Source: Halobacteroidaceae bacterium
GTDB taxonomy: Bacteria > Bacillota > Halanaerobiia > B1SED10-174
Direction: 5' to 3'
NCBI GenBank assembly: GCA_003551665.1
Contig: PUNE01000127.1
Span: forward strand, 2,640-66,639
Length of the DNA stretch: 64,000 nucleotides
Shown: one piece after another, positions 8,696 through 52,286 of the stretch
How the letters are laid out: the number at the start of each line of letters is the position of its first letter
Numbering within the stretch: position 1 is the first letter of the stretch
Position numbers and translations under genes: made by a program
The notes under the pieces: generated by a model
Database searches by the model: none
The model's input: the letters and a program-made list of their open reading frames with translations, nothing else
Told to the model about the DNA's origin: nothing

Positions 8696-8945
8696 AAATA
8701 GGCTAGGAGCGGGAGGAGTACCCATTACTGACTCTTATAGCGAACCGGGGCTGGTGGAAGCCCGGTAGATAGGAAGTGGGGAATATCACCCGGGAGCTGC
8801 AGACTGAATTATCAGTAAGTCTGTCGGTTGCCTCACCGTTAACAGGGGTAGGGCATTGGAGTGCCTGATTGAGTGGGCTATTTTGGCCAATTAAGGTGGT
8901 ACCGCGGGAAACCCCGTCCTTAAAGAGGATCGGGTTTTTTTTATT
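8696..8945 (+). promoter_or_regulatory. T-box riboswitch leader with Ile (AUC) specifier
   Basis: T-box sequence AATTAAGGTGGTACCGCGGG at 8889-8908. Candidate specifier GAATATCA (ATC 8785-8787 followed by a purine). Terminator AAACCCCGTCC...GGATCGGGTTTTTTTTT at 8909-8943. Confidence 0.85.
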
Positions 8946-12183: not shown

Positions 12184-13374
12184 GTGAAAGATAAAATCAA
12201 TAACTACATCGAGGAAAAAAAAGATCGCTGGGAAGAAGTTGCCCGCTACATCTGGGAAAATCCCGAACTGGGACATCAGGAGTTCAGGGCTCAAAAAGTC
12301 CTGGTTGATTTGCTTATTGAACTTGGCTTTGAAGTTGAAAAGGGAACAGCCGGGCTGGAAACTGCTTTCTGGGCGGAAAAAGGGAATAAAGAAGGTGGGC
12401 CGACTATTGCTTTTCTGGCGGAATATGATGCGCTCCCCAACCTGGGCCATGCCTGCGGACATAATCTCATAGGGGTTATGTCAGTTGCGGCGGCTGCAGC
12501 CCTTGGAAAGGTGCTTCCTCCTGGGGCAGGGAGGGTAGTTGTAATCGGTACTCCCGCCGAAGAGACTGACGGGGGCAAGGTAAGCATGGTGGAGGCAGGG
12601 ACATTTTCCGAAGTGGATGTTGCCATGATGGTTCATCCCTCCAGTAAATATGAAAAGAGCGGCAGCTCCCTGGCGCTGGAAGCAGTCCAGTTTGATTTTT
12701 TTGGCCGATCATCCCATGCTGCAGCTTCTCCGGAAAAGGGTTTGAATGCGCTGGATGCTGTAGTTAACATGTATAATGCAATCAGCAATTTAAGACAGCA
12801 GGTTCCTGATGGGGTTAGAATCCACGGAATTATTTCCAGGGGTGGTGAAGCAGCAAATATGATTCCCGAGCAGACCCAGGCCAGGTATTATCTGCGGGCA
12901 CCTGAATTAAGCCAGCTTGCAGATATAAAGGAAAGGGTGGTTAATTGCGCCGAGGGTGCTGCACTAGCGACAGGATGCCGGGTTGAAATATCCAACTACG
13001 AAATGGGTTATGCTCCTCTGAAATCAAATCAAAAACTGAATGATCTCTTCCAGGAAAACCTGGTTTCACTTGGTGTTTCTCCCGGGGAAATTGAAGAGGG
13101 GTCAGCAAAGGGTTCAGTTGATATTGGAGATGTAAGTCAGGTTGTTCCGGCCATTCATCCCACTATTAAAATAATGGACGAACCCCAACCCGGACATACA
13201 AGGGAGTTTGCTCTGGCAGCAAACAGCCCCAGAGCCTTCGAGGCCATGCTGCTGGGGGCAAAGGCTCTGGCTTTTTCCGGGTATGATTATTTTGCCCAAA
13301 CGGAAATCCAAAAAAGGGTGCAGGAAGAATTTGGGGCTGCAAAAAGGAATAGAAAAGACAAAACCTCTGATTAA
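12184..13374 (+). CDS. M20-family amidohydrolase/peptidase (AbgB-like)
   Basis: LAEYDALPNLGHACGHNLIG metal-site motif, GTPAEE, 396 aa. Confidence 0.75.
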   Translation: MKDKINNYIEEKKDRWEEVARYIWENPELGHQEFRAQKVLVDLLIELGFEVEKGTAGLETAFWAEKGNKEGGPTIAFLAEYDALPNLGHACGHNLIGVMSVAAAAALGKVLPPGAGRVVVIGTPAEETDGGKVSMVEAGTFSEVDVAMMVHPSSKYEKSGSSLALEAVQFDFFGRSSHAAASPEKGLNALDAVVNMYNAISNLRQQVPDGVRIHGIISRGGEAANMIPEQTQARYYLRAPELSQLADIKERVVNCAEGAALATGCRVEISNYEMGYAPLKSNQKLNDLFQENLVSLGVSPGEIEEGSAKGSVDIGDVSQVVPAIHPTIKIMDEPQPGHTREFALAANSPRAFEAMLLGAKALAFSGYDYFAQTEIQKRVQEEFGAAKRNRKDKTSD

Positions 13375-13388
13375 ATCAGAGGTTTTTA
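13359..13388. terminator. Bidirectional terminator between convergent genes
   Basis: ACCTCTGAT (13363-13371), loop TAA, ATCAGAGGT (13375-13383). A-tract on the 5' side and T5 on the 3' side. The loop is the M20 stop codon, and the T-tract overlaps the stop of the minus-strand gene. Confidence 0.7.
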
Positions 13389-15047
13389 CTTGAAAAGGTG
13401 GCAGGCAACCCGGCGGCCGGGCTCAACTTTTTTAAGAACCGGGGGGGCTTTCTGGGAAAACCTTACCCAAACCCGCCGGTTTTCATATTCAACTTCTGTA
13501 CAGGCTTTGGCCAGTACTTCATGTTCAGAAGCCATTAATGCCTGAACTTTCTCTATTAAGTCCTGCCAGGAAATACCAGCCGAATGGGCGAGTTCCAATG
13601 CCAGGTCGCCATCTTTATGACCGAAACTGTTAATGGATTGACTAAGATCGCTTTTTTGGATAAGGTTCTCAAGGTCGGCCCCTTCCCAGCCGCAATAAGG
13701 AAGGGCATCTCTGCAGGCGGAATGAAAAGAACACCCGTTAATTGGATCCTGGACGGGTAAGGGAACGGATAAATCCATATCAGATCCCAGAATTGCTCTA
13801 GAGTAGGGGTGGAGCGGTTTTTCCCGGATGGATTGCTGAGGACCATCTTCAATCAGGTTACCTCGAAAAATTATTCCCAGGTTGTGAGTTAGGGAGAGGT
13901 CGGTTCTGGTCGTGGTGATGGTAACATTTGTCCTCTGGTCTTTTATTATGGAATGAAGCAATTTAAGGTTTTCGGGGATCAACCCCCCCGGATTATTTAT
14001 TATAACCAGGCGGGGCTGGATAATAGAGGCCCATAAAAGGAAAATACTCAATTCCTGGGCGGGGGAAATTTCACCGGGAAAAGCTGAAAGGATATTATCC
14101 TGCTGGAGGGGGAAACAGCTGGTGATTTTTTCCTGAAGTTCCGGGAAAATTTGCTCAAGGTTTTTACCTGCCTTTAAATGCCGGGAAAATAATAAAATGC
14201 TCTTGCCTATTGTTTTCCCCGGCAGAAAAACAGGGTGCTGGTAATAGAGCATCTCCCGGGGTTTCAATATGCATACCCTTGTCCCACGGTCCGGGCTTTT
14301 TATCCCTGCGAGGATCTGACCCAGGCTTTCAGCAGTTTGTTTGCTATCGCAGATAAAGGTCCAGGACTGGTTTTGAGCGACATCAATATTCCATTCCTCG
14401 CTGGTATTAACCTGAAAATTATGCAGGGAAAGGATCTTGTAATCAGGAGGAGCTGGTTTCAATTCTGAGGAAGGATTTTTTTCAGGGGGTGGAATGGAGA
14501 TTATATCACCAGCACTCACCTGGAAGTAGTCCTGGATAAGTGGGTTTTGGGGAAGATTCTGGTCGAGAAGCTGTAGAAGAGCAGTATTTTTTTGAGAGAA
14601 AAGCTGAAAAAGCTCTTCGAGGGTTCGCTGGCGGGCAAAAGGGCCAAGATCTGTAAGTGCATCCCGGGCGATGACCAGGGGCGGGGCAGAGAAAGCAATA
14701 TCCAACCACCGAAAAATATTTAGAATATAGGAGGGGAAGTATGCCGGCTTCTTTTGCAAAAAACCCGGAGGCAAGGTAATAATCTTTTCGGCAGTGCTAC
14801 CTGCAGCAGCAGACAGTTGTTTTCCCAGGGATTGAGTGGGGTTAAAATAATCATTTGGTTCTGGGCTAACCCATAGTGCATCTTCAGCAAGCCGGGGGAA
14901 GAGTTCCCCATTTTTTAAAATTGTCGTCAATTGACCTGCAGGGTCTGCAACTTGAAATCTCTGGCCTTCTGCCAGATGAAAGGAACTGATGTTAAGAGCC
15001 GGTGAGTGGTTCTTATCCCGTTCAAGGTTTTTTATTTCAATGAGCAT
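13386..15047 (-). CDS. Fused double OppD/OppF-like ABC ATPase homologue with degenerate catalytic motifs
   Basis: Two ABC-like halves plus the oligopeptide C-terminal module (PLHPYSRAILGS...GCSFHSACRDALPYC...RRVACHLF). Walker A, signature, Walker B and H-loop positions read ADPAGQLTT / PSYIL / LVIARDAL / LLDQ in half 1 and CDSKQTAES / ISPAQ / LVIINNPG / TTRTD in half 2. Confidence 0.7.
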   Translation of the reverse strand: MLIEIKNLERDKNHSPALNISSFHLAEGQRFQVADPAGQLTTILKNGELFPRLAEDALWVSPEPNDYFNPTQSLGKQLSAAAGSTAEKIITLPPGFLQKKPAYFPSYILNIFRWLDIAFSAPPLVIARDALTDLGPFARQRTLEELFQLFSQKNTALLQLLDQNLPQNPLIQDYFQVSAGDIISIPPPEKNPSSELKPAPPDYKILSLHNFQVNTSEEWNIDVAQNQSWTFICDSKQTAESLGQILAGIKSPDRGTRVCILKPREMLYYQHPVFLPGKTIGKSILLFSRHLKAGKNLEQIFPELQEKITSCFPLQQDNILSAFPGEISPAQELSIFLLWASIIQPRLVIINNPGGLIPENLKLLHSIIKDQRTNVTITTTRTDLSLTHNLGIIFRGNLIEDGPQQSIREKPLHPYSRAILGSDMDLSVPLPVQDPINGCSFHSACRDALPYCGWEGADLENLIQKSDLSQSINSFGHKDGDLALELAHSAGISWQDLIEKVQALMASEHEVLAKACTEVEYENRRVWVRFSQKAPPVLKKVEPGRRVACHLFK

Positions 15048-15777
15048 CCTTTTTTCCCCCTTCTGTCAGGAGTGAACAGGCCAGTGCTGTAAGAAGGAAA
15101 AGGAGCCCTGGCCAGAGGAAACTCCACCAGTTATTGGGCCAGTTGGAATGAAGGTAGGCGTTGTTCAATGCGGTTCCCCATGTGGGCAAGAAAGAGGGAA
15201 CTATGCCTAAAAAGCTAACTGTGGTTTCAACTGTTAGGATACAAAGGAAGATCCGGATAAAGGATTTTATCAGGGGAGAAAGTGAAGCGGGTAGGGTGAT
15301 TCGGAAAAACCGGGTGGTTGGGGACAAATCTACAACCCGACTGGCCAGAAAAGAGGGGTGCTCGTTAAGTTTTTCAAGGAAACCAGCAAGCCTGGGATAA
15401 ATATCCAGTCCTGCAAATCCAATTGAACCCAGGGCCAGGGCAGGCAAAAAGTGAAAACCTGTTGCCAATAAAAACAGGGCCAGAATAATAGGAGGCAGGC
15501 CGCTCCAGAAAGGCAAAAGATTAACCCTGGGAAATAGAGCAAGGAGGTAGAAAAACAGGGTCACCGGTAATGCCAGCCCTCCAGAGATGAGAAGCGTGTG
15601 GCGGGTTTTCTGGAAGAAACCTAATGAATCCAGGGGGGGGATTAAGGGAACCAGGATTAGGCCAAAAAGAAAAATTATTGCCAGGAGGTTCAGGGGATAT
15701 CCCGGGTGGTCTAAAAAGAGTTTTTTTATTCTCGGAAAAAAGGGAGTTGGTATCTGTTTCGGGATTTTTTTTGTCAT
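15037..15777 (-). CDS. Divergent, short OppC/DppC-like ABC permease
   Basis: C-terminal half follows the OppC pattern (ITLPASLSPLIKSF...VETTVSFLGIVPSFLPTWGTALNNA...WPGLLFLLTALACSLL). ATGA stop/start overlap with the upstream gene. Confidence 0.6.
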   Translation of the reverse strand: MTKKIPKQIPTPFFPRIKKLFLDHPGYPLNLLAIIFLFGLILVPLIPPLDSLGFFQKTRHTLLISGGLALPVTLFFYLLALFPRVNLLPFWSGLPPIILALFLLATGFHFLPALALGSIGFAGLDIYPRLAGFLEKLNEHPSFLASRVVDLSPTTRFFRITLPASLSPLIKSFIRIFLCILTVETTVSFLGIVPSFLPTWGTALNNAYLHSNWPNNWWSFLWPGLLFLLTALACSLLTEGGKKDAH

Positions 15778-16487
15778 TTAACCCCCTCCCCCCTAAGAAT
15801 TTTATTTGTTTCTTCTCCCATTACCCATAACCAGTTAATGAGCATAACCAGGCTAATGATTGCAGCAAATATTACTGCAACCAAAAGGTAATCCTGCTGA
15901 AGAATACTGTTAAAAAGCAGGGGCCCAATTCCAGGCCAGGCAACTACAGTTTCAAAAGCAAGATGGGAACCGGTGGCCATTAAAACAAAAGATACCTGGG
16001 CTGGCCAGGGCCTTGGTCTCCGGAGGAAATTAACCCCCGCAAATGTATAAAAAAGGAATGCCAGAAAGAAGGGAATAAGGGGGTTATGTTCCGGGGGAAG
16101 ATTAAATAAATGAAAAAAACCCACAAAAACCAGGCCCCACCAGAAAAAGGGGGCGGAGCTGATAACTTTTGCTGCGGAAATGAATACCGGGGGCAACCCC
16201 TCTTTCCAGAAACGGTACAGGACAGGTAGAGCAAGAAGGATTGCCGGCAGGGCCAGGGAAAATGTGGAAAATAACCCGCCTGTTACAAGGGTGGCAGTGG
16301 GAAGACCGTACTGGGAAGATTTTATGTGGTTTATATTCCAGGGGGCATTGAGAAAATCCCAAAATGCTGCCGGTGTTAATTCAAGGAGACCCATAGAGAC
16401 CAGTCGGGCGAAGACAAGAAAGAGGAGGAATATCCAGGTAGCCAAAAAATAAGCTGTGGTTTTAAGGTGCCCTGATAAAAAGTGCAT
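15774..16487 (-). CDS. Divergent, short OppB/DppB-like ABC permease
   Basis: ETVVAWPGIGPLLFNSILQQDYLLVAVIFAAIISLVMLINWLW parallels the OppB C-terminal consensus. ATG at 16487 lies 7 nt after AGGAGG; the ORF-track start at 16523 would overlap the upstream gene. Confidence 0.6.
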   Translation of the reverse strand: MHFLSGHLKTTAYFLATWIFLLFLVFARLVSMGLLELTPAAFWDFLNAPWNINHIKSSQYGLPTATLVTGGLFSTFSLALPAILLALPVLYRFWKEGLPPVFISAAKVISSAPFFWWGLVFVGFFHLFNLPPEHNPLIPFFLAFLFYTFAGVNFLRRPRPWPAQVSFVLMATGSHLAFETVVAWPGIGPLLFNSILQQDYLLVAVIFAAIISLVMLINWLWVMGEETNKILRGEGVK

Positions 16488-16503
16488 TTTCAGTCCTCCT
16501 GGA

Positions 16504-17607
16504 TTATATTTGGAAATTACCATCCTTGTAGATCAATTCCCCATCGGCGAAAATTTCTCCACCGGTGCGCATATCGCACAATAAATCCCAGTGGATTGCG
16601 GATTTATTTTTGCTTCCCGTTTCAGGGTACCCGTTACCCAGGGCCAGGTGAATGGTTCCGCCAATTTTTTCATCAAAGAGCATGTTTTTGGTGAAATGTT
16701 TGATCCCATAATTGGTCCCCATTGCAATCTCTCCTACATAGGAAGAGCCATCATCAGTTTCGAGAATTGTCTGGAGCAGGTCTTCTCCTTTTTTGGCAGT
16801 GGCATTAACTACCTTTCCCCGGGAGAAGGTTAGCCTGATATCTTCAATTTCCCGGCCCAGGTATATTCCGGGAAAGCTGAAACGGATATGGCCGTTTACA
16901 GAATCTTCTACTGGAGCAGTAAAGATTTCCCCGTCGGGGAAGTTGTTTTTTCCATCGCAGTTTTCCCATTTTCGTCCCGAAATATTCATTTTTAGGTCAG
17001 TGTCTTCGGACTTGAAATGGAGTTCAGAGCATTTTTCCAGGTGGTTTATATATTTTTCATGCTGGTTGTGGATTTTTTTCCAGGCTGCAATGGGATCCTT
17101 TTCATTTAGCAGGCAGGCCCCGAAAACGAATTCAGTATATTCGTCAAGGGACATATTTCCTTCCTGGGCAGCGGCGTAAGTTGGATACTGGGTTCCGCAC
17201 CAGCTCAGTTTTCCTTCGGCTGCTCGTTTCATAAATGTTTGCATGATTTCAGTGCTTGCCCTCTGGCTCTGTCTCATTTTCTCCGGGGAAATGTTGCTCA
17301 ATTCCCGGGTATTTAATGGAGCACTGATACTGAGCAAGGCGTCATATTCGTTGGCAATAAGATTGACTACAGGCGAAATATACTCGACCTGGTGGTCGGC
17401 CCCTTCTTTTAATAGGATTTCTGTGAGCCCTGGCAACTGCAAGCGAGTTTCAGGGTAAGCTCCCATGCGGATTCCTTCCCGGAAAACTTCTTTAATAAGG
17501 GGGTAGGCAGCTTCCTGAGAATTAATTGCCAGCTTCTGACCTTCCTTTAAATCCAGGGAATGGTTGACCAGGACCCGGGCCATTTTAGCTATACGTGGAT
17601 CAGGCAT
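16504..17607 (-). CDS. M29-family aminopeptidase (AmpS/PepS type)
   Basis: N-terminal ARVLVNHSLDLKEGQKLAI and C-terminal GTIHLALGNGYPETGSKNKSAIHWDL are typical of thermophilic metalloaminopeptidases. Confidence 0.8.
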   Translation of the reverse strand: MPDPRIAKMARVLVNHSLDLKEGQKLAINSQEAAYPLIKEVFREGIRMGAYPETRLQLPGLTEILLKEGADHQVEYISPVVNLIANEYDALLSISAPLNTRELSNISPEKMRQSQRASTEIMQTFMKRAAEGKLSWCGTQYPTYAAAQEGNMSLDEYTEFVFGACLLNEKDPIAAWKKIHNQHEKYINHLEKCSELHFKSEDTDLKMNISGRKWENCDGKNNFPDGEIFTAPVEDSVNGHIRFSFPGIYLGREIEDIRLTFSRGKVVNATAKKGEDLLQTILETDDGSSYVGEIAMGTNYGIKHFTKNMLFDEKIGGTIHLALGNGYPETGSKNKSAIHWDLLCDMRTGGEIFADGELIYKDGNFQI

Positions 17608-17610
17608 TTT

Positions 17611-18504
17611 TCATTCCTCCTCGGGGCAAATAACCCTAAATTTTTGGTGAATAACTCCAACCTGGAGAGGGGTGGAGCCATAAATTGAACCGTCAAACAT
17701 TTTTGGATAATCCGCAACAGTTGTAAGATTGATCTTGCTGGCTCTGTGGAATTCCACCTGGGGGTGATTGCGGTGTCCACCGCTGTAAACCCGTGGGAGC
17801 AGGCCAAGCAATCCTCCCCGAGAAAGATTGTTCATGATTACCACGTCCAGCAAACCATCCTGTGGATCGGCATCAGGGGCCACCATCAGGCCACCTCCAG
17901 TAAAACGGGTATTGAGAATGAAAACCCCACTGGCCTGGCGAATTAGTTTTTCCCCATCAAGATCAAGTTCAAGGGGAATGGGTTGGAGCAGGGAAACCGT
18001 TTTAACAACGTTATAGGCTATGGCCATGGAACCCCGAAGCAATCCTTTGTAATTATTGGTTCTATGCATTACTTCAGCGGGAAAACCAACTCCAGCAATA
18101 ATAGAAAAGAGCCGGTCTTTTTCTTTTCCCAGATCAATCCTGCGAATTCGGCCTCCGGCCAGAAGTGAAACGCTTTCCAGGGGCTGGAGGGATATTCCCA
18201 GGCTGCGGGCAAGGTCATTTCCTGTTCCCAGAGGTATAACTCCAAAGACGGGGCCTTCCGGCCCCAGACCATTTATTACTTCGTTAACTGTTCCATCTCC
18301 CCCGACTGCACAAACCGCATCAAAGTTATTGTTACCGGCTTCCTCTGCCAGGTGGGTTGCGTGGTCAGGTGCATCGGTTTTCACCAGTTCATATGGGATC
18401 CCGTAATGTTTTAGCCTTTTATGGAGTTCGGGAATAAGTTTTCCCGCCCGCCCCCCTCCGGCAACAGGATTTACAATTATTAAAACCGAGCTGAATAAAC
18501 CCAC
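17611..18504 (-). CDS. YegS/BmrU/DagK-family lipid kinase
   Basis: NPVAGGGRA, GGDGTVNEV and GTGNDLARSLG motifs, 297 aa. Confidence 0.8.
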   Translation of the reverse strand: MGLFSSVLIIVNPVAGGGRAGKLIPELHKRLKHYGIPYELVKTDAPDHATHLAEEAGNNNFDAVCAVGGDGTVNEVINGLGPEGPVFGVIPLGTGNDLARSLGISLQPLESVSLLAGGRIRRIDLGKEKDRLFSIIAGVGFPAEVMHRTNNYKGLLRGSMAIAYNVVKTVSLLQPIPLELDLDGEKLIRQASGVFILNTRFTGGGLMVAPDADPQDGLLDVVIMNNLSRGGLLGLLPRVYSGGHRNHPQVEFHRASKINLTTVADYPKMFDGSIYGSTPLQVGVIHQKFRVICPEEE

Positions 18505-18515
18505 CTGTTTTCCTC

Positions 18516-19799
18516 CTAACCCTTAATGGATATATTGACTGGGTTGATCAATACGGGAGGCAGAAGCATATTATCCGCCCACTTTTGTTCCGAACCTATT
18601 GCAGAGATTCTTTCTTTGAAAGCCTGGAAAATATTGAGGGAGAACATGGCATCTTTAACCCTGCCCTCAATCCGGCCGTTTTTAATTTTATATCCCAGGG
18701 AAATATTGCCGCTAACCTGGCCCCCGTAAGGATTGCCTGCCCAGGCACCCATGGTTCCCGCAATCAAAAGCCCTTCATCGATACTTTCCAGCATTTCCGA
18801 AAAAGAATTATTTCCGGGTTCCATAACCAGGTTGTTGAAGTCCGGACCATTTTCTCCCCCGGTCCCAGTAGGAGAAAGGTCCAATTTGTGAGCTGTTTCC
18901 AGATCAAGAACGTAATTCTTAAGCCTTCCCTTTTCTATCAGGGGGAAGGAGGAGCAGGCCACTCCTTCCCTATCAAAGGGCTTACTTGCAGGGCCCCGAT
19001 CCAAAATCCCCTGGTTGGAGAGACTGAACTCGGAAGAAAAAACCTGTTCTCCAAGCCTGTTTTCCCAGGGAGAAAGGCCACGGACAACTGCCTGTCCGTT
19101 CAGACAGGCCTCCACCGGGTGGAGAATATCTGCTAAAGTTTCGGGAATAAAAAGGACAGGATAGTTTCCTGAGCGCAGGGGTACATTGGTACGCCCCCAG
19201 TCAATTTCCCGCAGGAGATTTTCGCAATCGTTTTCCCAGTCGATATCCCGCCAGTGAGTTCTTTGGGGAAAAGAGTAGTTGACCAGAAGGTTTTTCCCTT
19301 CAATTAATCTCAGGGCAAAAAGGACCTTTACCTGGCTTTGCCGGAATGAACTGGAAAAACCAGCACTGTTTTCCAGCTCGAAGAAATTTTTTTCTTTCTG
19401 GATGCTGACTTCTGCCTGGATGTCGGGATGATATTGTGTAGCCTTATTGATAAAATCCTGTGCAGTTTGGATCAACTCTTCCAGGGGGAGGTTTACTAAC
19501 TCTTCGTCCCAGATCTCGGGCTTTTTTAACCGGGTCTGCGCGGGGAAGGCAAAGTCAACGCGGGGACCATAATCTAAGGTTTCTCTTGCCATTTTACTTA
19601 AGTATTCTCTATTGTTGGGTTTGGTATTTTCCCCAATTCCAATTCTTCCGTTTTTTATCAACCGCAGGACTTCCCGATTGGTTTCCCCGGAATTAATTTT
19701 CTTCAAACGGTTATTGGCGAATTGAACAGTAGTATGGCTGCTTTGTTTCCTGTAGAGATCACCCTGTTCCCCTGCTTGCAGCATTTTTTTTAATTGCAT
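18516..19799 (-). CDS. pmbA: PmbA/TldE-family metalloprotease subunit
   Basis: TldD/PmbA-fold C-terminal region (GLLIAGTMGAWAGNPYGGQVSGNISLGYKIKNGRI). Lacks HExxxH. 1-nt overlap with tldD. Confidence 0.75.
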   Translation of the reverse strand: MQLKKMLQAGEQGDLYRKQSSHTTVQFANNRLKKINSGETNREVLRLIKNGRIGIGENTKPNNREYLSKMARETLDYGPRVDFAFPAQTRLKKPEIWDEELVNLPLEELIQTAQDFINKATQYHPDIQAEVSIQKEKNFFELENSAGFSSSFRQSQVKVLFALRLIEGKNLLVNYSFPQRTHWRDIDWENDCENLLREIDWGRTNVPLRSGNYPVLFIPETLADILHPVEACLNGQAVVRGLSPWENRLGEQVFSSEFSLSNQGILDRGPASKPFDREGVACSSFPLIEKGRLKNYVLDLETAHKLDLSPTGTGGENGPDFNNLVMEPGNNSFSEMLESIDEGLLIAGTMGAWAGNPYGGQVSGNISLGYKIKNGRIEGRVKDAMFSLNIFQAFKERISAIGSEQKWADNMLLPPVLINPVNISIKG

Positions 19800-21175
19800 T
19801 AACTCTCACCTCCAATTACGACGTTCTGGACCCGAATATGAGGTGATCCCTCACTGGTGGGAAGTGGTGATTGTTCGAATTTTCCGCAACCGCCAGCATT
19901 ATTCAAAATTACAAAATCCTTCCCGATCCGGTCGATATTATCGAGGGTATGAAAGACATTCCCGGTCAGGGTAACGTTTTTTACAGGTTCTGCAAGCCTG
20001 CCGTTGCGGATCATCTGACCTCGGGTGGCAGTGAAGGTAAAAAGCTCTCCATTTGTTTCTCCCCCGATACCCCCGATGGCATACACCCCCAGGTCGATTC
20101 CCGAAAGCATTTCTTCGAAGGTGTCAGGACCGGCTTCAATACAGGTTGACCGCATGCGGCAGATGGGAGGAAAACGATAGTTGATTGCCCGGGCATTTCC
20201 AGTTGGCCGAGCTTCCATTTTGGCAGCTGATTCCCGGGAGTGAAGATGTCCCACAACTTCCCCACCTTTAATCAGGTAGGTTTTTTCCGTTGGAGTTCCT
20301 TCGTCATCGTATTGCATGCAGCCCCGATTTCCCCATTCCCGTCCACTATCATAAATATTTAAAAAAGAGGGGCCGTAGCGGGTCCCCAGTTGCATCAGCT
20401 TGAGGAGGTTTTTATCTTCATAAATTTCATCGGCTTCACTTAAGTGCCCAAAAGCTTCGTGGACAAAGAGTCCTGCCATTTCAGGGTCCAGGATAACTGT
20501 GTACTCTCCGCCCTTTACGGTGGGAGCGGTTAACTGGTCAGCAGCCCTCTGGGCGGCAGCTATAACTGCTTCATCGTGTCCCCGTGCGGTTCCAAAATCA
20601 TTGGTTGACCCAAAAGATACTGCATCGTAGGTTCTATCCTGCCCGTCACTTGCCGTTGCCCCAAGATTGCCCCCGATATCTGTCTTTTCCTGGTAGATGA
20701 AAGAGCCATCTGAATTGGCGAAATACCAATTAGTATGTTTGTCAAAGTAGACAATTCGAGTGCTGGTGATGCGGGGATCGGCTTTCAGAATAAGCTGGTT
20801 ATAGTGTTCAAGGAGTTCTGCTTTTTCTTTTAGAGTAATTTTCCGTGGGTCTTCGAGATATTTTGTAAAAACTTCATCTTCTATTGGTTCGGCCGGAGCG
20901 AGAGTTGTAGATCCATTTTTCACCCTGTTAATTGTGCTGGCCTGTTCTTCGGCCAGACGCAGCTTTTTTTCCAGGTCATCCAGGTGGTTAAATGAAACAA
21001 AACCCCATCCATTTCCGATGAGGCTTCGAATACATCCTCCAAACTGAATTTTACGTTCCATTTTCTCAATTTCCCTGCCCCGGAAAGAAATGAATGTAAC
21101 CTCGGTTTCTTCAATTCGAATATCACAGTAATTAGATTTGCTTAGAGAAAGCAGGTCTTGCATTTTTAACTGCAA
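19799..21175 (-). CDS. tldD: TldD-family zinc metalloprotease
   Basis: HEAFGHLSE zinc motif and GGCGK C-terminal motif. In-frame starts at GTG 21190, TTG 21175 (8 nt after GGAGG, preferred) and ATG 21163. Confidence 0.8.
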   Translation of the reverse strand: MQLKMQDLLSLSKSNYCDIRIEETEVTFISFRGREIEKMERKIQFGGCIRSLIGNGWGFVSFNHLDDLEKKLRLAEEQASTINRVKNGSTTLAPAEPIEDEVFTKYLEDPRKITLKEKAELLEHYNQLILKADPRITSTRIVYFDKHTNWYFANSDGSFIYQEKTDIGGNLGATASDGQDRTYDAVSFGSTNDFGTARGHDEAVIAAAQRAADQLTAPTVKGGEYTVILDPEMAGLFVHEAFGHLSEADEIYEDKNLLKLMQLGTRYGPSFLNIYDSGREWGNRGCMQYDDEGTPTEKTYLIKGGEVVGHLHSRESAAKMEARPTGNARAINYRFPPICRMRSTCIEAGPDTFEEMLSGIDLGVYAIGGIGGETNGELFTFTATRGQMIRNGRLAEPVKNVTLTGNVFHTLDNIDRIGKDFVILNNAGGCGKFEQSPLPTSEGSPHIRVQNVVIGGES

Positions 21176-21229
21176 ACAAACCACCTCCACAGTCCAGATA
21201 AATCGGTATAAAATCTGGATCGATTTTTT

Positions 21230-44768: not shown

Positions 44769-46388
44769 GTGAAAAAGTTAGTTCTGGTTTTATTAATTAT
44801 GGCGCTGGTTCTCCCGGCTACCGCCGCCATTGCCCAAGAAGAACCTGAGAAGGGAGGTACTTTCCACCGGGGAATGGTTATCAGCCCGCGGGGGATGTTT
44901 AACCCCATTCTTTACACTGAAGCCTATGATGCTGATGTTATTGTAGCGGTTTTTGATTCTCTGGTTACTGTAAATCGTGAACTGGAAATTGTGCCTCAAA
45001 TCGCTGAAAGCTGGGAATTTTCTGAAGATGGCCGCACCCTCACTTTTTACCTGAAAGAAGGGGTTAAGTTTCATGACGGCGTTGAATTGACCGCTGAAGA
45101 CGTTAAATATACTTTTAAAACCATCATGCATCCACACTATACCGGTGTTCGCTTTGGGGACTTTGCCCTTGTAAAAGGTGCAGAAGCCTACAAAGAGGGC
45201 GAAGTTGATTATGTAGAAGGTATCGAGATAATTGATGATTATACCATCAGTTTTACCACGGAAGAAGTTTATGCTCCATTTTTAAATGAGTTCACCTACG
45301 GGATTCTTCCCTCCCATATCCTTGAAGATGTGCCCGTAGCGGAACTTGAAGCCCATGATTTTAATCAAAACCCAATTGGAGCTGGGCCATTTAAGTTTGT
45401 TGAATTCCGCCCGGACCAGTATGTAGTCCTGGATGGTTTCGAGGATTACCACCAGGAAGGACCCTATCTGGACCGTATGGTTTACCACATTCTCGATGAT
45501 GAAGCCCGTCCGGTTTGGTTGCGCCAGGGCCGCATTGACTATGTTGGTATTTCTTCCGAACAGGTCCCCATGGTTGAAGCCCTGGATTTTGTAGATGTCT
45601 TTGACTATGAAGCACTGAGCTACACCTATATCTGCTTTAACCTCAGGCAGGAGCGCTTTGATGATCCAAGGATCCGCCAGGCTGTTGCTTACGGCTATGA
45701 CAGGCAGACGGTTAAGGATATTATCCTCGATGGTTACGGGGTAATTGCCAACGCTCCAATGCCCACGGCCTCCTGGGCTTATACCGACGAGGGGATTAAT
45801 GAGTACCCCTTCAATCCTGATCGTTCCATTGAATTGATGGAAGAAGCAGGTTGGGAGCGCGGTGCCGATGGAGTTTGGGAAAAAGACGATATGCGGATGG
45901 AGTTTGAATTCATCTATACTGAAGCCACCCGGGCCCAGGAACAAATGATGATGCTCTTCCAGCAGAACATGGAGGACATTGGTTTTAAGGTTCACCTCCG
46001 TCCAATGGAATTCTCGGCTGCTGTAGATCGCATTGACGCCCGTGAATTTGATGCCTTTACCCTGGGCTGGAGTCTTGGTGTTGATCCTGACCCCTACGGA
46101 ATCTGGCATTCAACTTCAATGTGGAACGATGCGGGCTGGGTCAATGAGCGTTCTGACGAACTCATTGAAACAGGACGAACCACTGTTGATATGGATGAGC
46201 GCGCCGAGATTTATGCAGAGTGGCAGCGTCTAATGAATGAAGAACTCCCCAACGTTTTCCTGATGTATTCTGTAAGTATTGTTGCTGCAAACGAAAGATT
46301 GAAAGGAATCGATGATGATCCCGGGGCCCAGGGAATATTCTGGACCGAGATTCTCCACAAGCTCTGGATTCCTGCTGACCGCCAGTAA
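44769..46388 (+). CDS. Family-5 peptide/nickel ABC substrate-binding protein
   Basis: Signal peptide. SLVTVNRELEIVPQIAESWEFSEDGRTLTFYLKEGVKFHDG is the canonical SBP_bac_5 signature region. Confidence 0.85.
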   Translation: MKKLVLVLLIMALVLPATAAIAQEEPEKGGTFHRGMVISPRGMFNPILYTEAYDADVIVAVFDSLVTVNRELEIVPQIAESWEFSEDGRTLTFYLKEGVKFHDGVELTAEDVKYTFKTIMHPHYTGVRFGDFALVKGAEAYKEGEVDYVEGIEIIDDYTISFTTEEVYAPFLNEFTYGILPSHILEDVPVAELEAHDFNQNPIGAGPFKFVEFRPDQYVVLDGFEDYHQEGPYLDRMVYHILDDEARPVWLRQGRIDYVGISSEQVPMVEALDFVDVFDYEALSYTYICFNLRQERFDDPRIRQAVAYGYDRQTVKDIILDGYGVIANAPMPTASWAYTDEGINEYPFNPDRSIELMEEAGWERGADGVWEKDDMRMEFEFIYTEATRAQEQMMMLFQQNMEDIGFKVHLRPMEFSAAVDRIDAREFDAFTLGWSLGVDPDPYGIWHSTSMWNDAGWVNERSDELIETGRTTVDMDERAEIYAEWQRLMNEELPNVFLMYSVSIVAANERLKGIDDDPGAQGIFWTEILHKLWIPADRQ

Positions 46389-46417
46389 AACAGCAAAAAA
46401 AATTACAGGGAAAAACC

Positions 46418-46448
46418 GGAATGGCAGGCGGCATCCGTCTGCCATTCC
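46418..46448 (+). promoter_or_regulatory. Intercistronic stem-loop after the binding-protein gene
   Basis: GGAATGGCAGGCGG, loop CAT, CCGTCTGCCATTCC: about 14 bp, no T-tract. Confidence 0.55.
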
Positions 46449-46473
46449 CATTAATTAGCTGGAGTGATGGATT

Positions 46474-47433
46474 ATGATGACTTATCTAATCCGGCGAGTT
46501 CTTTTCCAGGGGGTTCCTGTTTTAATCGGATTTACCTTTTTGGTATTTTTGATGATTAACTTTGCTCCCGGGGATCCGGTAACTCACCTGCGAGGTGTTC
46601 CCGATTTAGATCCCAGGGTAATTGAGGACAGGAAGACCCAGTTAGGTCTTGACCGCCCTCTGGTTGTTCGCTATTTTGACTGGGTTGGCGAACTGCTGCA
46701 GGGCAATCTGGGGAGATCTTTTGATAGTGCCCGTCGACCTGTAGCGGACCTGATAAGAGAAAGACTCCCGGTAACGATTCTGCTATCGGTTTCAAGTATA
46801 ATAATTGGGTGGGGGATAGGTATTCCTGTGGGCATCTACTCTGCCCGACGGCAGTACACCCTTTCCGATTATTCGATTACCTTTTTGGCTTTTGTGGGGG
46901 TTTCAGTTCCAAATTTCTTTTTTGGGATGGTTTTACTCTATATTTTTGCCCTGATTTTAAATGTCCTTCCCGCAGGGGGGTATTTCAGTCCCGGTGAGGA
47001 GTTCAGCTTTTTAGGCATGTTAAGTTATCTGGTAATGCCCGCCTTTACCCTGGGCCTGGCCAGTATTGCCAGTATAACCAGATATATGCGGAGCAGCTTG
47101 CTTGAAGTTATCCGCCAGGATTACCTGCGGACAGCAAGGGCAAAGGGATTGCGGGAGAGAGTAGTTATTTACAAGCACGCTCTCAGGAACGCTTTGATCC
47201 CGATTTTGACTCTGATGGGTTTTATGGTTCCGATTATTTTTTCTGGGGCTGTAATAACCGAGCAGGTTTTTTCCTGGCCCGGACTGGGAAGAATGGTTAT
47301 TGATGCAACCCACCAGAGGAACTATCCTGTCATGATGGGAATTAACCTTATGTTCGGGATCCTGACTTTTTTGGGGAATGTTGTTGCTGATGTTGCCTAT
47401 GCGATTGCCGACCCCCGGATACGGTATGATTGA
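46474..47433 (+). CDS. Peptide ABC transporter permease (DppB/OppB type)
   Basis: YLIRRVLFQGVPVLIGFTFLVFLM N-terminus, RTARAKGLRERVVIYKHALRNALIP, TEQVFSWPGLGRM. Confidence 0.85.
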   Translation: MMTYLIRRVLFQGVPVLIGFTFLVFLMINFAPGDPVTHLRGVPDLDPRVIEDRKTQLGLDRPLVVRYFDWVGELLQGNLGRSFDSARRPVADLIRERLPVTILLSVSSIIIGWGIGIPVGIYSARRQYTLSDYSITFLAFVGVSVPNFFFGMVLLYIFALILNVLPAGGYFSPGEEFSFLGMLSYLVMPAFTLGLASIASITRYMRSSLLEVIRQDYLRTARAKGLRERVVIYKHALRNALIPILTLMGFMVPIIFSGAVITEQVFSWPGLGRMVIDATHQRNYPVMMGINLMFGILTFLGNVVADVAYAIADPRIRYD

Positions 47434-48338
47434 GGAGGGAGATTATAATGGCTGAAAATAACGAAGAAAGAGTGTTGTCGAGAAGAAATATAGAATCTCC
47501 CTGGGCTGTTGGCTGGCGAAGGTTCAAAAAGAACCGGATTGCTTTGCTCGGAGCCATATTTTTGCTGATTTTCGTTTTCCTGGCAATTTTTGCTCCGTAC
47601 CTTACACCTCACAGCCCCACCAGGGCGGATTTTTTGAAAAGAAACGAGGCCCCTTCCAGTGAGCACTGGCTTGGGACTGATGAAATGGGTAGGGATATCC
47701 TGACCCGGACCCTTCACGGGGGGAGGATATCTCTTTCCGTGGGCCTGGTCTCTGTCTCAATAACAATGTTTATTGCCCTAATCCTGGGTTCGATTGCTGG
47801 CTATGCCGGTGGCTTTACAGATACAATCATCATGCGCCTGGCAGATATATTTTTAAGCTTCCCGTTTTTGATCCTGGCTATTACCGCCTCTGCTCTTCTG
47901 GGGCCAAGTATTTACAACGTTATGATTATACTCGGGGTTATTTCCTGGCCGGGTCCCTGCAGGCTTTTAAGGGCGGAATTTTTGAAACTCAAATCCCAGG
48001 ATTTTATTCAGGCTGCTGTTGCCCTGGGAGGAGGGCATCGCCGGATAGTTTTGATCCACCTCCTGCCCAATGCAATTCCACCCCTTTTGGTAGCAGCAAC
48101 CCTGGGAGTGGCCAGTGCAATTATCGGGGAAGCCGGCCTCAGTTTCCTGGGCCTCGGTGTTCCCCCGCCAGCACCTTCCTGGGGCAATATGCTTAATTCT
48201 GCCCGGGCTCTGCACATCATGGAAGGTATGCCCTGGATGTGGCTCCCACCAGGAATTGCAATTTTCCTGGCAGTTTTAAGTATTAACTTCCTTGGTGATG
48301 GATTGCGCGATGCTCTAGACCCCAAACAAGAAGGATAG
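47430..48338 (+). CDS. Peptide ABC transporter permease (DppC/OppC type)
   Basis: HWLGTDEMGRDILTR, QAAVALGGGHRRIVLIHLLPN, SFLGLGVPPPAPSWGNML. Alternative ATG at 47448. Confidence 0.85.
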   Translation: MRREIIMAENNEERVLSRRNIESPWAVGWRRFKKNRIALLGAIFLLIFVFLAIFAPYLTPHSPTRADFLKRNEAPSSEHWLGTDEMGRDILTRTLHGGRISLSVGLVSVSITMFIALILGSIAGYAGGFTDTIIMRLADIFLSFPFLILAITASALLGPSIYNVMIILGVISWPGPCRLLRAEFLKLKSQDFIQAAVALGGGHRRIVLIHLLPNAIPPLLVAATLGVASAIIGEAGLSFLGLGVPPPAPSWGNMLNSARALHIMEGMPWMWLPPGIAIFLAVLSINFLGDGLRDALDPKQEG

Positions 48339-50882: not shown

Positions 50883-52286
50883 ATGGAACTTTATATTTTT
50901 AACACCAAGTCCAGGAAAAAAGAAAAATTGCAACCCCAAAAACCCCCAAAGGTTGGTCTTTATACCTGTGGCCCCACAGTTTATGATTATGCCCATATTG
51001 GGAATATGAGGGCCTATGTTTTTTCTGATACCCTTCGCCGGGTCCTGGAATATAATGATTTCCAATTGCATCATGTTATGAATATTACTGACGTTGGCCA
51101 CCTTGTTTCCGATGCCGATGAAGGGGAAGACAAGATAGTTGTTGAAGCACGGAAAAAGAAAAAATCTCCCTACGAGATTGCTGATTTTTACACCGATATT
51201 TTTTTCCGCCATGCCAGAAAATTAAATATCAAAGACCCATCCATTACCTGCAAGGCAACGGATCATATCCAGGAGATGATCGATTTCGTAAAGGTTCTCG
51301 TCGATAGAGGGCATGCTTATGAAATCAGTGACGGGATATATTTTGATATTTCCACCTTTCCAGATTACGGTAAACTATCGGGAATAGATCTTGAAGAGCA
51401 GCAGGAGGGTGCGCGGGTGGAAGTGAACCCGGAAAAAAAACATCCCGCTGATTTTGCCCTGTGGAAAAAGGCCCCGAAAAACCACATTATGCAGTGGCCC
51501 AGTCCCTGGGGAATGGGATATCCTGGCTGGCACATCGAGTGCTCGGCAATGGGTTTGAAATACCTTGATGGTTTTTTCGATATTCACACCGGGGGAGTAG
51601 ACCATATTCCCATTCACCACGAAAATGAAATTGCCCAAAACTGGGGATATACCGGAACTGAAGTAGTAAAATACTGGATGCATAGTGAGTTTTTGCAGGT
51701 TGATGGCGGAAAGATGGCCAAAAGCCTGGGTAATTTCTTTACCCTGGATGATATCGAAGCAAGAGGTTTTGATCCCCTGGCCTTCCGATACTTATTATTG
51801 AATGCCCATTACCGGAAAAAAGTGAATTTTACCTGGGAAGCTCTGGAAGGAGCTCAGAAGGCTATCGACAGGCTTACCGAACATGTTTTGAAATTCAGGG
51901 AAGCTCCGGCAAAAAAGGGCTGCGGGCCCCGGCTTCAGAAATATAAAGAGAAGTTTCTTGAAGCAATAAATGATGATCTGAATGTTCCCCGGGCAATTGC
52001 TCTGGTCTGGGATGTTTTAAGAGGTGAAGAGCCGGCAAGTGAGTATTACCAGTTTTTGCTGGATGTTGATAGGGTTTTGGGATTTGGAATGAAAGATATG
52101 GAAAGGAAAGAAGAAGAGATTTCTGCTGAGATCAGGAAACTGATTGAACGTCGGGAAGAAGCCAGGAACAAAAGAAACTGGGAGGAAGCTGATGCAATTA
52201 GAGATCAGCTTTTGGAAAAAGGAATTCGCCTGATGGATACTCCCGAAGGTGTCCGCTGGGAAAGGATAAGAAAAAAAGAAGAATAG
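50883..52286 (+). CDS. cysS: Cysteinyl-tRNA synthetase
   Basis: YTCGPTVYDYAHIGNMR (HIGH region), WPSPWGMGYPGWHIEC, KMAKSLGN (KMSKS). Confidence 0.92.
   Translation: MELYIFNTKSRKKEKLQPQKPPKVGLYTCGPTVYDYAHIGNMRAYVFSDTLRRVLEYNDFQLHHVMNITDVGHLVSDADEGEDKIVVEARKKKKSPYEIADFYTDIFFRHARKLNIKDPSITCKATDHIQEMIDFVKVLVDRGHAYEISDGIYFDISTFPDYGKLSGIDLEEQQEGARVEVNPEKKHPADFALWKKAPKNHIMQWPSPWGMGYPGWHIECSAMGLKYLDGFFDIHTGGVDHIPIHHENEIAQNWGYTGTEVVKYWMHSEFLQVDGGKMAKSLGNFFTLDDIEARGFDPLAFRYLLLNAHYRKKVNFTWEALEGAQKAIDRLTEHVLKFREAPAKKGCGPRLQKYKEKFLEAINDDLNVPRAIALVWDVLRGEEPASEYYQFLLDVDRVLGFGMKDMERKEEEISAEIRKLIERREEARNKRNWEEADAIRDQLLEKGIRLMDTPEGVRWERIRKKEE

Follow-up and report, generated by a model that had tools for sequence, protein, structure and literature searches.

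A degenerate peptide-importer module retained under purifying selection beside an M29 aminopeptidase gene in Halobacteroidaceae-like soda-lake bacteria

The stretch analysed here, 64,000 nucleotides of contig PUNE01000127.1 from a Halobacteroidaceae bacterium (the window), carries seven consecutive open reading frames (ORFs) on the minus strand between positions 13386 and 21190. In order of transcription they encode TldD, PmbA, a YegS-type lipid kinase, an M29 aminopeptidase, an OppB-like and an OppC-like permease (B-like and C-like below) and a fused OppDF-like protein (DF), the last three derived from a peptide transporter of the ATP-binding cassette (ABC) class and referred to here as the B-C-DF module. 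The window locus (W) was compared with homologous loci, designated L001, L003, L007, L010 and so on, and with homologous proteins such as P0145, P0146 and P0152. An original prediction made from the letters of the window alone had described the seven genes as one operon ending at a terminator, had judged the ATPase of the module to be dead, and had proposed that proteases and module together form a dedicated assembly for peptide processing, sensing or export. As set out below, the gene content, the packing and the dead ATPase are borne out, the extent of the operon is revised, and the assembly is not supported. The individual enzymes are ordinary; what is unusual is a doubly dead Opp/Dpp derivative that lacks a substrate-binding protein (SBP) and is under purifying selection.

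The only Pfam match of DF is oligo_HPY (E 8.8e-5, below the gathering score), and ABC_tran is not matched at all. Its motifs were read from alignments to orthologues, to active relatives, to Escherichia coli DppD and to 4fwi_B, a solved DppD-type nucleotide-binding domain (NBD). Walker A of the second half, GESGSGKST, has become CDSKQTAES, the signature LSGGxxQR has become ISPAQELS, Walker B LLIADEP has become LVIINNP and the H-switch THD has become TTRTD. In the first half, whose NBD is shortened to ~190 aa, a deletion has removed the P-loop region (~19 residues when compared with P0145) and left the remnant ADPAGQLTT, and the Walker B position reads IARD. With Walker A, Q-loop, signature, Walker B and H-switch replaced or deleted in the two halves, the alignments bear out the claim of a dead ATPase directly, and DF is predicted to be incapable of binding or hydrolysing ATP by the canonical mechanism. 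The place of the Walker A/Q-loop segment in the NBD2-like half is taken by residues 219-265 (~14253-14393, minus strand), with the pattern W-x-ID-x-AQNQSWTFICD...GTR-x-C-x-LKPRE-x-LY. This replacement sequence is nearly invariant among the three window-type species and different in P0145.

The double-NBD fold is retained in an AlphaFold2 (AF2) model of DF with a mean predicted local distance difference test score (pLDDT) of 79.6 and a predicted template modelling score (pTM) of 0.81. Its top Foldseek matches, 8wdb_D, 8j5r_D and 8wda_D, are the fused DppD/OppD proteins of Mycobacterium tuberculosis (E ~1e-17). Across the whole family of four, even in P0145 with an identity of only 27%, the HPY motif and four cysteines (C439-x5-C445-x6-C452...C549) do not vary, and the cysteine spacing C-x5-C-x6-C...C equals that seen for the [4Fe-4S] ligands in E. 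coli DppD/DppF. DF appears on this basis to keep a C-terminal domain of the Cys4 [4Fe-4S] type with a putative cluster site; in M. tuberculosis OppD the [4Fe-4S] cluster is reported to make the complex more stable (PMC12136057). Cysteines 3 and 4 are separated by an alpha/beta insertion of ~95 aa, for which a Pfam scan of the dead protein and three active relatives returned nothing meaningful at E values up to 10.

Both permease-like proteins are degenerate as well. B-like has no Pfam match and is recognised by the NCBIfam OppB models (E ~1e-5) across its last ~50 aa. Compared with the functional OppB of L014, it has lost ~13 aa in the scoop region close to the first transmembrane helix and ~50 aa spanning the EAA coupling loop; in OppB the scoop docks the SBP and the EAA coupling loop docks the NBD (PMC12136057). 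C-like, whose BPD_transp_1 match falls below the gathering score (Table 1), lacks in alignments the propeller and the GTDxxGRD loop of its relatives and keeps a degenerate EAA region together with the core E-x3-SFLG...WG; an AF2 model of it, built on an alignment of four sequences, was unusable (pLDDT 43). No gene for a family-5 SBP stands beside the module in W, L001, L003, L060 or L010. Thus, of the features of a type I importer of the Opp/Dpp/Nik type (PepT family), the oligo_HPY Cys4 region and the double-NBD fold are present, and the SBP, the NBD motifs and two permeases with a BPD_transp_1 core and EAA loop are absent. That the module is not an ordinary importer, as originally proposed, is in keeping with its want of a binding protein, which the active relatives in L014 and L065 have. 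As read from its motifs, the module is shown to be unfit for a canonical cycle of import driven by an SBP and ATP. The E. coli subunits pair as DppB-DppD and DppC-DppF (PMC12136057); here the most degraded partners are the B-like permease and the D-like half, and their joint degradation is consistent with B-D and C-F pairing.

The three module genes are not pseudogenes but are under purifying selection with constraint relaxed 3-5-fold. The ratio dN/dS (omega) was estimated from L001 versus L003, at an unsaturated dS of ~0.5-0.6 and with bootstrap 95% confidence intervals (CI). It was 0.20 for B-like (CI 0.12-0.30), 0.28 for C-like (CI 0.18-0.42) and 0.25 for DF (CI 0.19-0.32), compared with 0.06-0.12 for TldD, PmbA, YegS and M29 (0.06 for both TldD and M29). 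Taken by halves, DF is uneven: the NBD2-like half, at 0.11, is as constrained as the housekeeping neighbours, and the NBD1-like half, at 0.48, is the most relaxed. The value of 0.11 hints that the old nucleotide site has come under a new, lineage-specific constraint. At the protein level the window is 52-62% identical to its relatives in B, C and DF, versus 74-90% in the neighbours, and all three module genes stay intact and co-linear across relatives, with length differences of single residues only. We regard the module as selected because omega is far below 1, the ORFs are intact, and the ribosome-binding sites (RBSs) and overlaps are conserved.

These same data bear on the possibility that the module is a slowly decaying, functionless relic that persists for lack of time or through polar or translational-coupling effects. 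Within the clade the SBP, the propeller, the scoop, the EAA loop and the P-loop have indeed been lost step by step, omega is the highest in the operon, reaching 0.48 in the NBD1-like half, and one lineage has lost the module outright. We nevertheless consider decay improbable, as omega of 0.20-0.28 with upper bounds no higher than 0.42 at unsaturated dS, and 0.11 in the NBD2-like half, is not what a relic should display. Nor should it have kept three full-length, co-linear genes through 40-48% amino-acid divergence, homologues in five or more lineages, as distant as 66% M29 identity, Shine-Dalgarno sequences before each gene, and Cys4 and HPY elements invariant even in P0145.

Alternatively, the module might still transport, with B and C forming a peptide path that lacks its own ATPase and acts as a facilitator or channel, or is powered in trans by active OppD/F-type ATPases and supplied by an SBP encoded elsewhere, such as in the ATPase-less OppABC system at 44.8-48.3 kb. 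That locus (44769-48338, plus strand) encodes a canonical OppA (SBP_bac_5, E 1e-91), OppB and OppC with no OppD or OppF after them; four ORFs without a Pfam match follow, and the cysteinyl-tRNA synthetase gene is at 50883. It is the counterpart of the module, in which permeases and a dead ATPase are present and the SBP is missing. Since OppD and OppF are missing there, active ATPases must be encoded elsewhere, so that ATPases and permeases are unlinked in this genome, and C-like does retain the family core. We think residual transport very improbable, however: B-like has neither the EAA loop for docking an NBD nor the scoop for docking an SBP (PMC12136057), the module's own fused pseudo-NBD, being under selection, would occupy the NBD sites, and no SBP gene adjoins the module in any lineage.

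The dead DF is rare. When 1.84 billion representative proteins (50%-identity clusters) were searched exhaustively with a profile, only two clusters, the window type and P0145 (E 2e-58), preceded the ordinary active OppD/F proteins, and word-based searches of 5.8 billion proteins found three proteins each for DF and C-like. All members of the dead-DF family are from Halobacteroidaceae-like soda-lake metagenome-assembled genomes (MAGs), the relatives being uncultured Halobacteroidaceae/Bacillota MAGs from Kulunda-steppe soda-lake sediments (PMC6146748). The active proteins closest to this family are P0146, P0152 and the DF of L014; their GESGxGKT, LSGGxxQR and ADEP motifs are intact and they share the CGWxGxDL...ACHL insertion. 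In L014 and L065 the operons are complete, with SBP, OppB, OppC and an active fused DF. Two OppC-type genes, in L014 (7885-9582) and L010 (8324-9433), encode a ~300-aa YCF48/BNR-like beta-propeller inserted in the first periplasmic loop, and the propeller OppC is partnered with a fused OppDF that bears an insertion of ~95-120 aa between Fe-S cysteines 3 and 4. This combination appears to represent an uncharacterised subfamily of peptide ABC importers.

The window module shares with the L014/L065 subfamily the C-terminal insertion in DF, and L010 shares the propeller in OppC as well; the L014 and L065 systems differ in being complete, in having all catalytic motifs and in being unlinked to M29 or TldD/PmbA. 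Two intermediates stand between them. L010 has kept the propeller and a B-like protein that still matches BPD_transp_1 at E 2.6e-8, and P0145 is a less degenerate dead DF with a longer first NBD and IAEEP in the Walker B position. The loci form a reduction series that runs from intact L014 and L065 through L010 and P0145 to the window type and ends with loss in L007. The L014/L065 systems are likely the direct ancestor type, and the sequence likenesses show the module to be derived from a real peptide importer subfamily and of importer type rather than exporter type. Horizontal acquisition of the module was considered and discarded, its GC content being the same as that of its neighbours and the module being ancestral in the clade.

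The original prediction had turned on whether the linkage is kept in related genomes. In two other species (L001/L005 and L003/L004/L013) the whole MgtE-Rbr-GNAT-TldD-PmbA-YegS-M29-B-C-DF / M20 / IleRS block (Rbr, rubrerythrin; IleRS, isoleucyl-tRNA synthetase) does recur in the same order; since the surroundings from MgtE to IleRS are equally syntenic, adjacency in these species says little about function. Beyond them the seven genes are not a conserved unit, being split in L010 and reduced by loss in L007-L009. L060 (M29 72% identical) has M29, B-like and C-like. L010 (M29 66%) has TldD-PmbA-AHSA1, an opposite-strand Indigoidine_A gene and then M29, B-like and the propeller C-like, with no kinase at the equivalent position and no single operon. 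L012, the locus of P0145, has the tail of a C-like gene followed by DF, convergent with IleRS. In L007-L009 (M29 76%) the full run from MgtE to M29 is followed by a terminator-like hairpin and an opposite-strand DUF2087 gene. The M29-M20 space of ~780 bp (11105-11886 in L007; likewise in L008 and L009) holds the DUF2087 gene, of 94 aa, and the new hairpin, and tblastn detected no remnant of B, C or DF in it. In a neighbour-joining tree of M29, module-less L007 is nested inside module-bearing lineages (bootstrap 96-100), which indicates that the ancestor of the clade already had the module and that a single loss followed. No TldD/PmbA or Opp-like genes adjoin the M29 genes of outgroups (Caloranaerobacter and others, ~60% identical). 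Taken together, the conserved core is M29 followed by B, C and, in part, DF; TldD/PmbA just lie close by, and only the inner clade has the kinase, GNAT and rubrerythrin genes there. A contig scan with a TldD pattern, too narrow for a broad census, recovered only the two known species and an unrelated Dehalococcoidia TldD-PmbA pair.

These neighbourhoods weigh on the idea that TldD/PmbA, M29 and the ABC-like complex are one dedicated assembly, in which the proteases act on a specific peptide that is bound, sensed or released by the dead-ATPase membrane module. The genes do form one tightly spaced run with RBSs conserved in three species, the TldD-PmbA and M29-B-C blocks lie close together even in the deeper locus L010, and the M20 amidohydrolase gene, convergent with the run, fits the peptidase theme. 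Yet L007-L009 retain TldD-PmbA-YegS-M29 without the module, L010 has an opposite-strand gene between TldD-PmbA and M29-B-C and is missing the kinase, and synteny of the entire MgtE to IleRS block makes adjacency alone uninformative. Pfam and NCBIfam scans of the operon genes found none of the marks of a microcin B17-like cluster or other cluster for ribosomally synthesised and post-translationally modified peptides, namely a precursor peptide, a modification enzyme, an exporter-type ABC protein (ABC2) or an immunity gene, and intergenic gaps of at most 76 nt leave no room for a precursor-peptide gene. Moreover, TldD/E is a general, non-specific protease of unfolded peptides (PMC6722960), and the module is importer-type. 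On balance we regard such an assembly, whether for processing or for export, as quite improbable.

The evidence instead supports B-C-DF as a selected, non-ATP-driven pseudo-transporter linked mainly to M29. We envisage a membrane heterotrimer in which B, C and DF still come together much as in the M. tuberculosis DppBCD translocator, and which would be held mainly by the better-conserved C-like/F-like half and the putative Fe-S domain. Such a complex would be locked, with no ATP-driven alternating-access cycle, and would be not a pump but an accessory that transports nothing, serving as a membrane scaffold or else as a regulator or sensor for cytoplasmic peptide catabolism. Its most plausible partner would be the presumably co-translated M29 aminopeptidase, because the module has followed the M29 gene since the origin of the clade. 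The association with TldD/PmbA and the kinase would then reflect clade-level synteny of a peptide-utilisation neighbourhood and not an obligate machine. We give about an even chance to this general reading, a non-transporting B-C-DF accessory to peptide catabolism encoded in a lineage-restricted, probably nine-gene operon. A narrower version, in which the pseudo-ABC importer, retained through tens of percent of sequence divergence, is an Fe-S-bearing membrane scaffold or a redox or peptide sensor that tethers or regulates M29, is tentative and on present evidence rather unlikely; if true, an ABC importer of bacteria would here have become a regulatory module without catalysis.

Several observations weigh against an accessory role. 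The module's rate of evolution is 3-5 times that of its neighbours, and its loss in one lineage left the rest of the operon undisturbed, which together imply that its contribution is dispensable and could be marginal. Window-type DF and P0145 have different motifs in place of the old active site, an argument against one new ligand site being conserved throughout. There is also no output domain or regulator in the operon that would make a sensor role obvious, family scans of the operon proteins having turned up no regulator gene.

The closest known systems are DppABCD and OppABCD of M. tuberculosis (PDB 8wda, 8j5r), which the DF model resembles most closely in structure (E 5e-18, TMq up to 0.57). 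These likewise consist of two permeases and one fused two-NBD protein with a C-terminal oligo_HPY region and cysteine cluster motif. The window module differs from them in having no SBP, in the absence of Walker A, Walker B, signature and H-switch from both sites, in its ~190-aa first NBD, in a B protein without EAA loop or scoop, and in the extra ~95-aa insertion between cysteines 3 and 4. E. coli DppD/DppF have the same cysteine spacing and HPY motif, and the B-with-D, C-with-F logic fits the paired degeneration; the E. coli ATPases, however, are separate, active and subject to SBP-dependent activation, whereas the window ATPase is fused, dead and without an SBP. ABC systems in which one nucleotide site has degenerated are familiar, and UhpC and yeast Ssy1 are transporter-derived, non-transporting sensors. 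Like degenerate ABC exporters and these sensors, the module keeps a transporter scaffold after partial or complete loss of transport or catalysis, but sensors of the UhpC/Ssy1 type have an identified signalling partner and none is evident in the window operon. Heterodimeric ABC exporters have degenerate nucleotide-binding sites (review PMC7756269); the known ones keep one competent site, whereas DF has none.

Non-exhaustive literature searches produced no precedent for TldD/E in operons with ABC genes, nor for an importer with both sites dead, no SBP and genes still selected, in line with the original remark that no described system of this composition was known. Should the module assemble and have a role, nature would offer in it a pseudo-enzyme or pseudo-transporter made from a type I importer, and it would show that parts of Opp/Dpp systems (the C/F half, the [4Fe-4S] C-terminal domain and the insertion domain) matter beyond transport. 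The series from L014/L065 through L010/P0145 and the window to L007 is a ready comparative set. Practical impact is limited, given that the module is confined to a few uncultured soda-lake MAGs and its function is inferred.

The seven-gene run is packed as an operon, on one strand with short gaps or overlaps (−1, 11, 3, 16, −4 and −11 nt, as originally given), an RBS conserved before each gene and conserved flanking terminators. All seven ORFs belong to the families first named, with Pfam and NCBIfam support that is sub-threshold for the last three. The 16-nt gap between M29 and B-like presupposes the start ATG at 16487, chosen to match the orthologues. GGAGG RBSs and the −4 and −11 overlaps are conserved across orthologous loci, and no terminator interrupts the run. 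TldD most likely starts at TTG 21175 and not at GTG 21190, because the former gives 458 aa, as in orthologues, with GGAGG 8 nt upstream, and the latter falls within the RBS.

The 3' boundary, a 12-bp palindrome with a T-run at 13386-13360 that is conserved in orthologous loci, is where the original prediction had put it. The 5' end, by contrast, is not at TldD: GNAT and Rbr-like genes lie upstream on the same strand (gaps of 54 nt between GNAT and TldD and 32 nt between Rbr and GNAT, the latter with a conserved GGAGG). As no terminator separates these genes from TldD and the nearest conserved one follows MgtE (22695-22669), the transcription unit probably comprises nine genes, from Rbr to DF (Table 1).

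Table 1. Features of the probable transcription unit and its boundaries, listed from upstream to downstream (window positions)
Feature	Start	End	Strand	Basis and remarks
Terminator-like hairpin after MgtE	22669	22695	-	11-bp stem and T-run; same hairpin kept after MgtE in L001, L003; likely upstream boundary
Rubrerythrin/ferritin-like gene	22120	22617	-	ORF; orthologues carry PF02915; probable first gene of unit
GNAT acetyltransferase, 285 aa	21230	22087	-	PF00583 E 1.3e-14; same position in L001, L003, L007
TldD metalloprotease subunit	19799	21175	-	PmbA_TldD domains 1-3; HEAFGH; C-terminal GGCGK Cys
PmbA/TldE partner	18516	19799	-	PF19289 E 5.7e-59; 1-nt overlap with TldD, junction kept in four lineages
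YegS/BmrU-family lipid (diacylglycerol-type) kinase	17611	18504	-	TIGR00147 160.7 bits (cutoff 118.65); DAGK_cat and YegS_C
M29 aminopeptidase	16504	17607	-	PF02073 E 3.4e-96 over residues 5-365 of 367 aa; B-like next in W, L001, L003, L060, L010
OppB-derived permease-like protein, 237 aa	15774	16487	-	Weak C-terminal NCBIfam OppB matches; scoop and EAA loop gone
OppC-derived permease-like protein, 246 aa	15037	15777	-	BPD_transp_1 E 1.6e-4, Opp4C E 8e-11; propeller and GTDxxGRD loop gone
Fused OppD/F-derived double pseudo-NBD, 553 aa	13386	15047	-	ATPase motifs lost; HPY, Cys4 and C-terminal insertion kept
Bidirectional terminator hairpin	13360	13386	.	12-bp stem, A/T-runs both sides; kept after DF in L001, L003

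Between 12000 and 24500, promoter-like sites occur at the chance level (13 versus 14.2 +/- 4.1). Terminator-like hairpins exceed shuffled sequence (33 versus 19.9 +/- 4.2) and are mostly intragenic with 5-6-bp stems. Two candidate internal signals were rejected. A promoter upstream of B-like (16532-16503, score 10/12) belongs to a total count at chance and its TATAAT is not conserved in L001/L003. A hairpin within TldD (21028-20998) lies in conserved coding sequence, would truncate TldD and is regarded as spurious. The terminator at 13360-13386 is a near-perfect palindrome common to the convergent DF and M20 amidohydrolase genes; the M20 stop codon (13372-13374) sits in its loop, and one arm of the stem consists of the final M20 codons.

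TldD and PmbA make up an adjacent pair with Pfam domains above the gathering score. TldD has three PmbA_TldD domains (E down to 3e-56), HExxxH in the form HEAFGH and a C-terminal Cys in GGCGK, and PmbA (E 6e-59) has no HExxxH. Paired genes, the HExxxH and C-terminal Cys ligand of TldD and the three-domain Pfam architecture are shared with E. coli TldD/TldE (PMC6722960); the window pair differs as a distant subfamily (258 versus 635 bits, far under the NCBIfam equivalog cutoffs) and in the absence of a microcin or toxin-antitoxin context. The kinase matches PF00781 and PF19279 and has the GGDGT motif, and M29 has thousands of homologues at E < 1e-30. Eight operon proteins were without a PADLOC match for anti-phage defence. 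In the GNAT protein the first ~125 residues match acetyltransferase models and the C-terminal ~150 aa have no family match; in four lineages its gene is kept immediately upstream of TldD, at 79-83% identity.

Finally, the sole Rfam match over 8-25 kb is the IleRS T-box, a leader at 8696-8924 (plus strand, 138 bits) upstream of IleRS. The mechanical ORF start at 8869 falls inside this leader, and the real IleRS start is further downstream, the orthologues being 1053 aa long.

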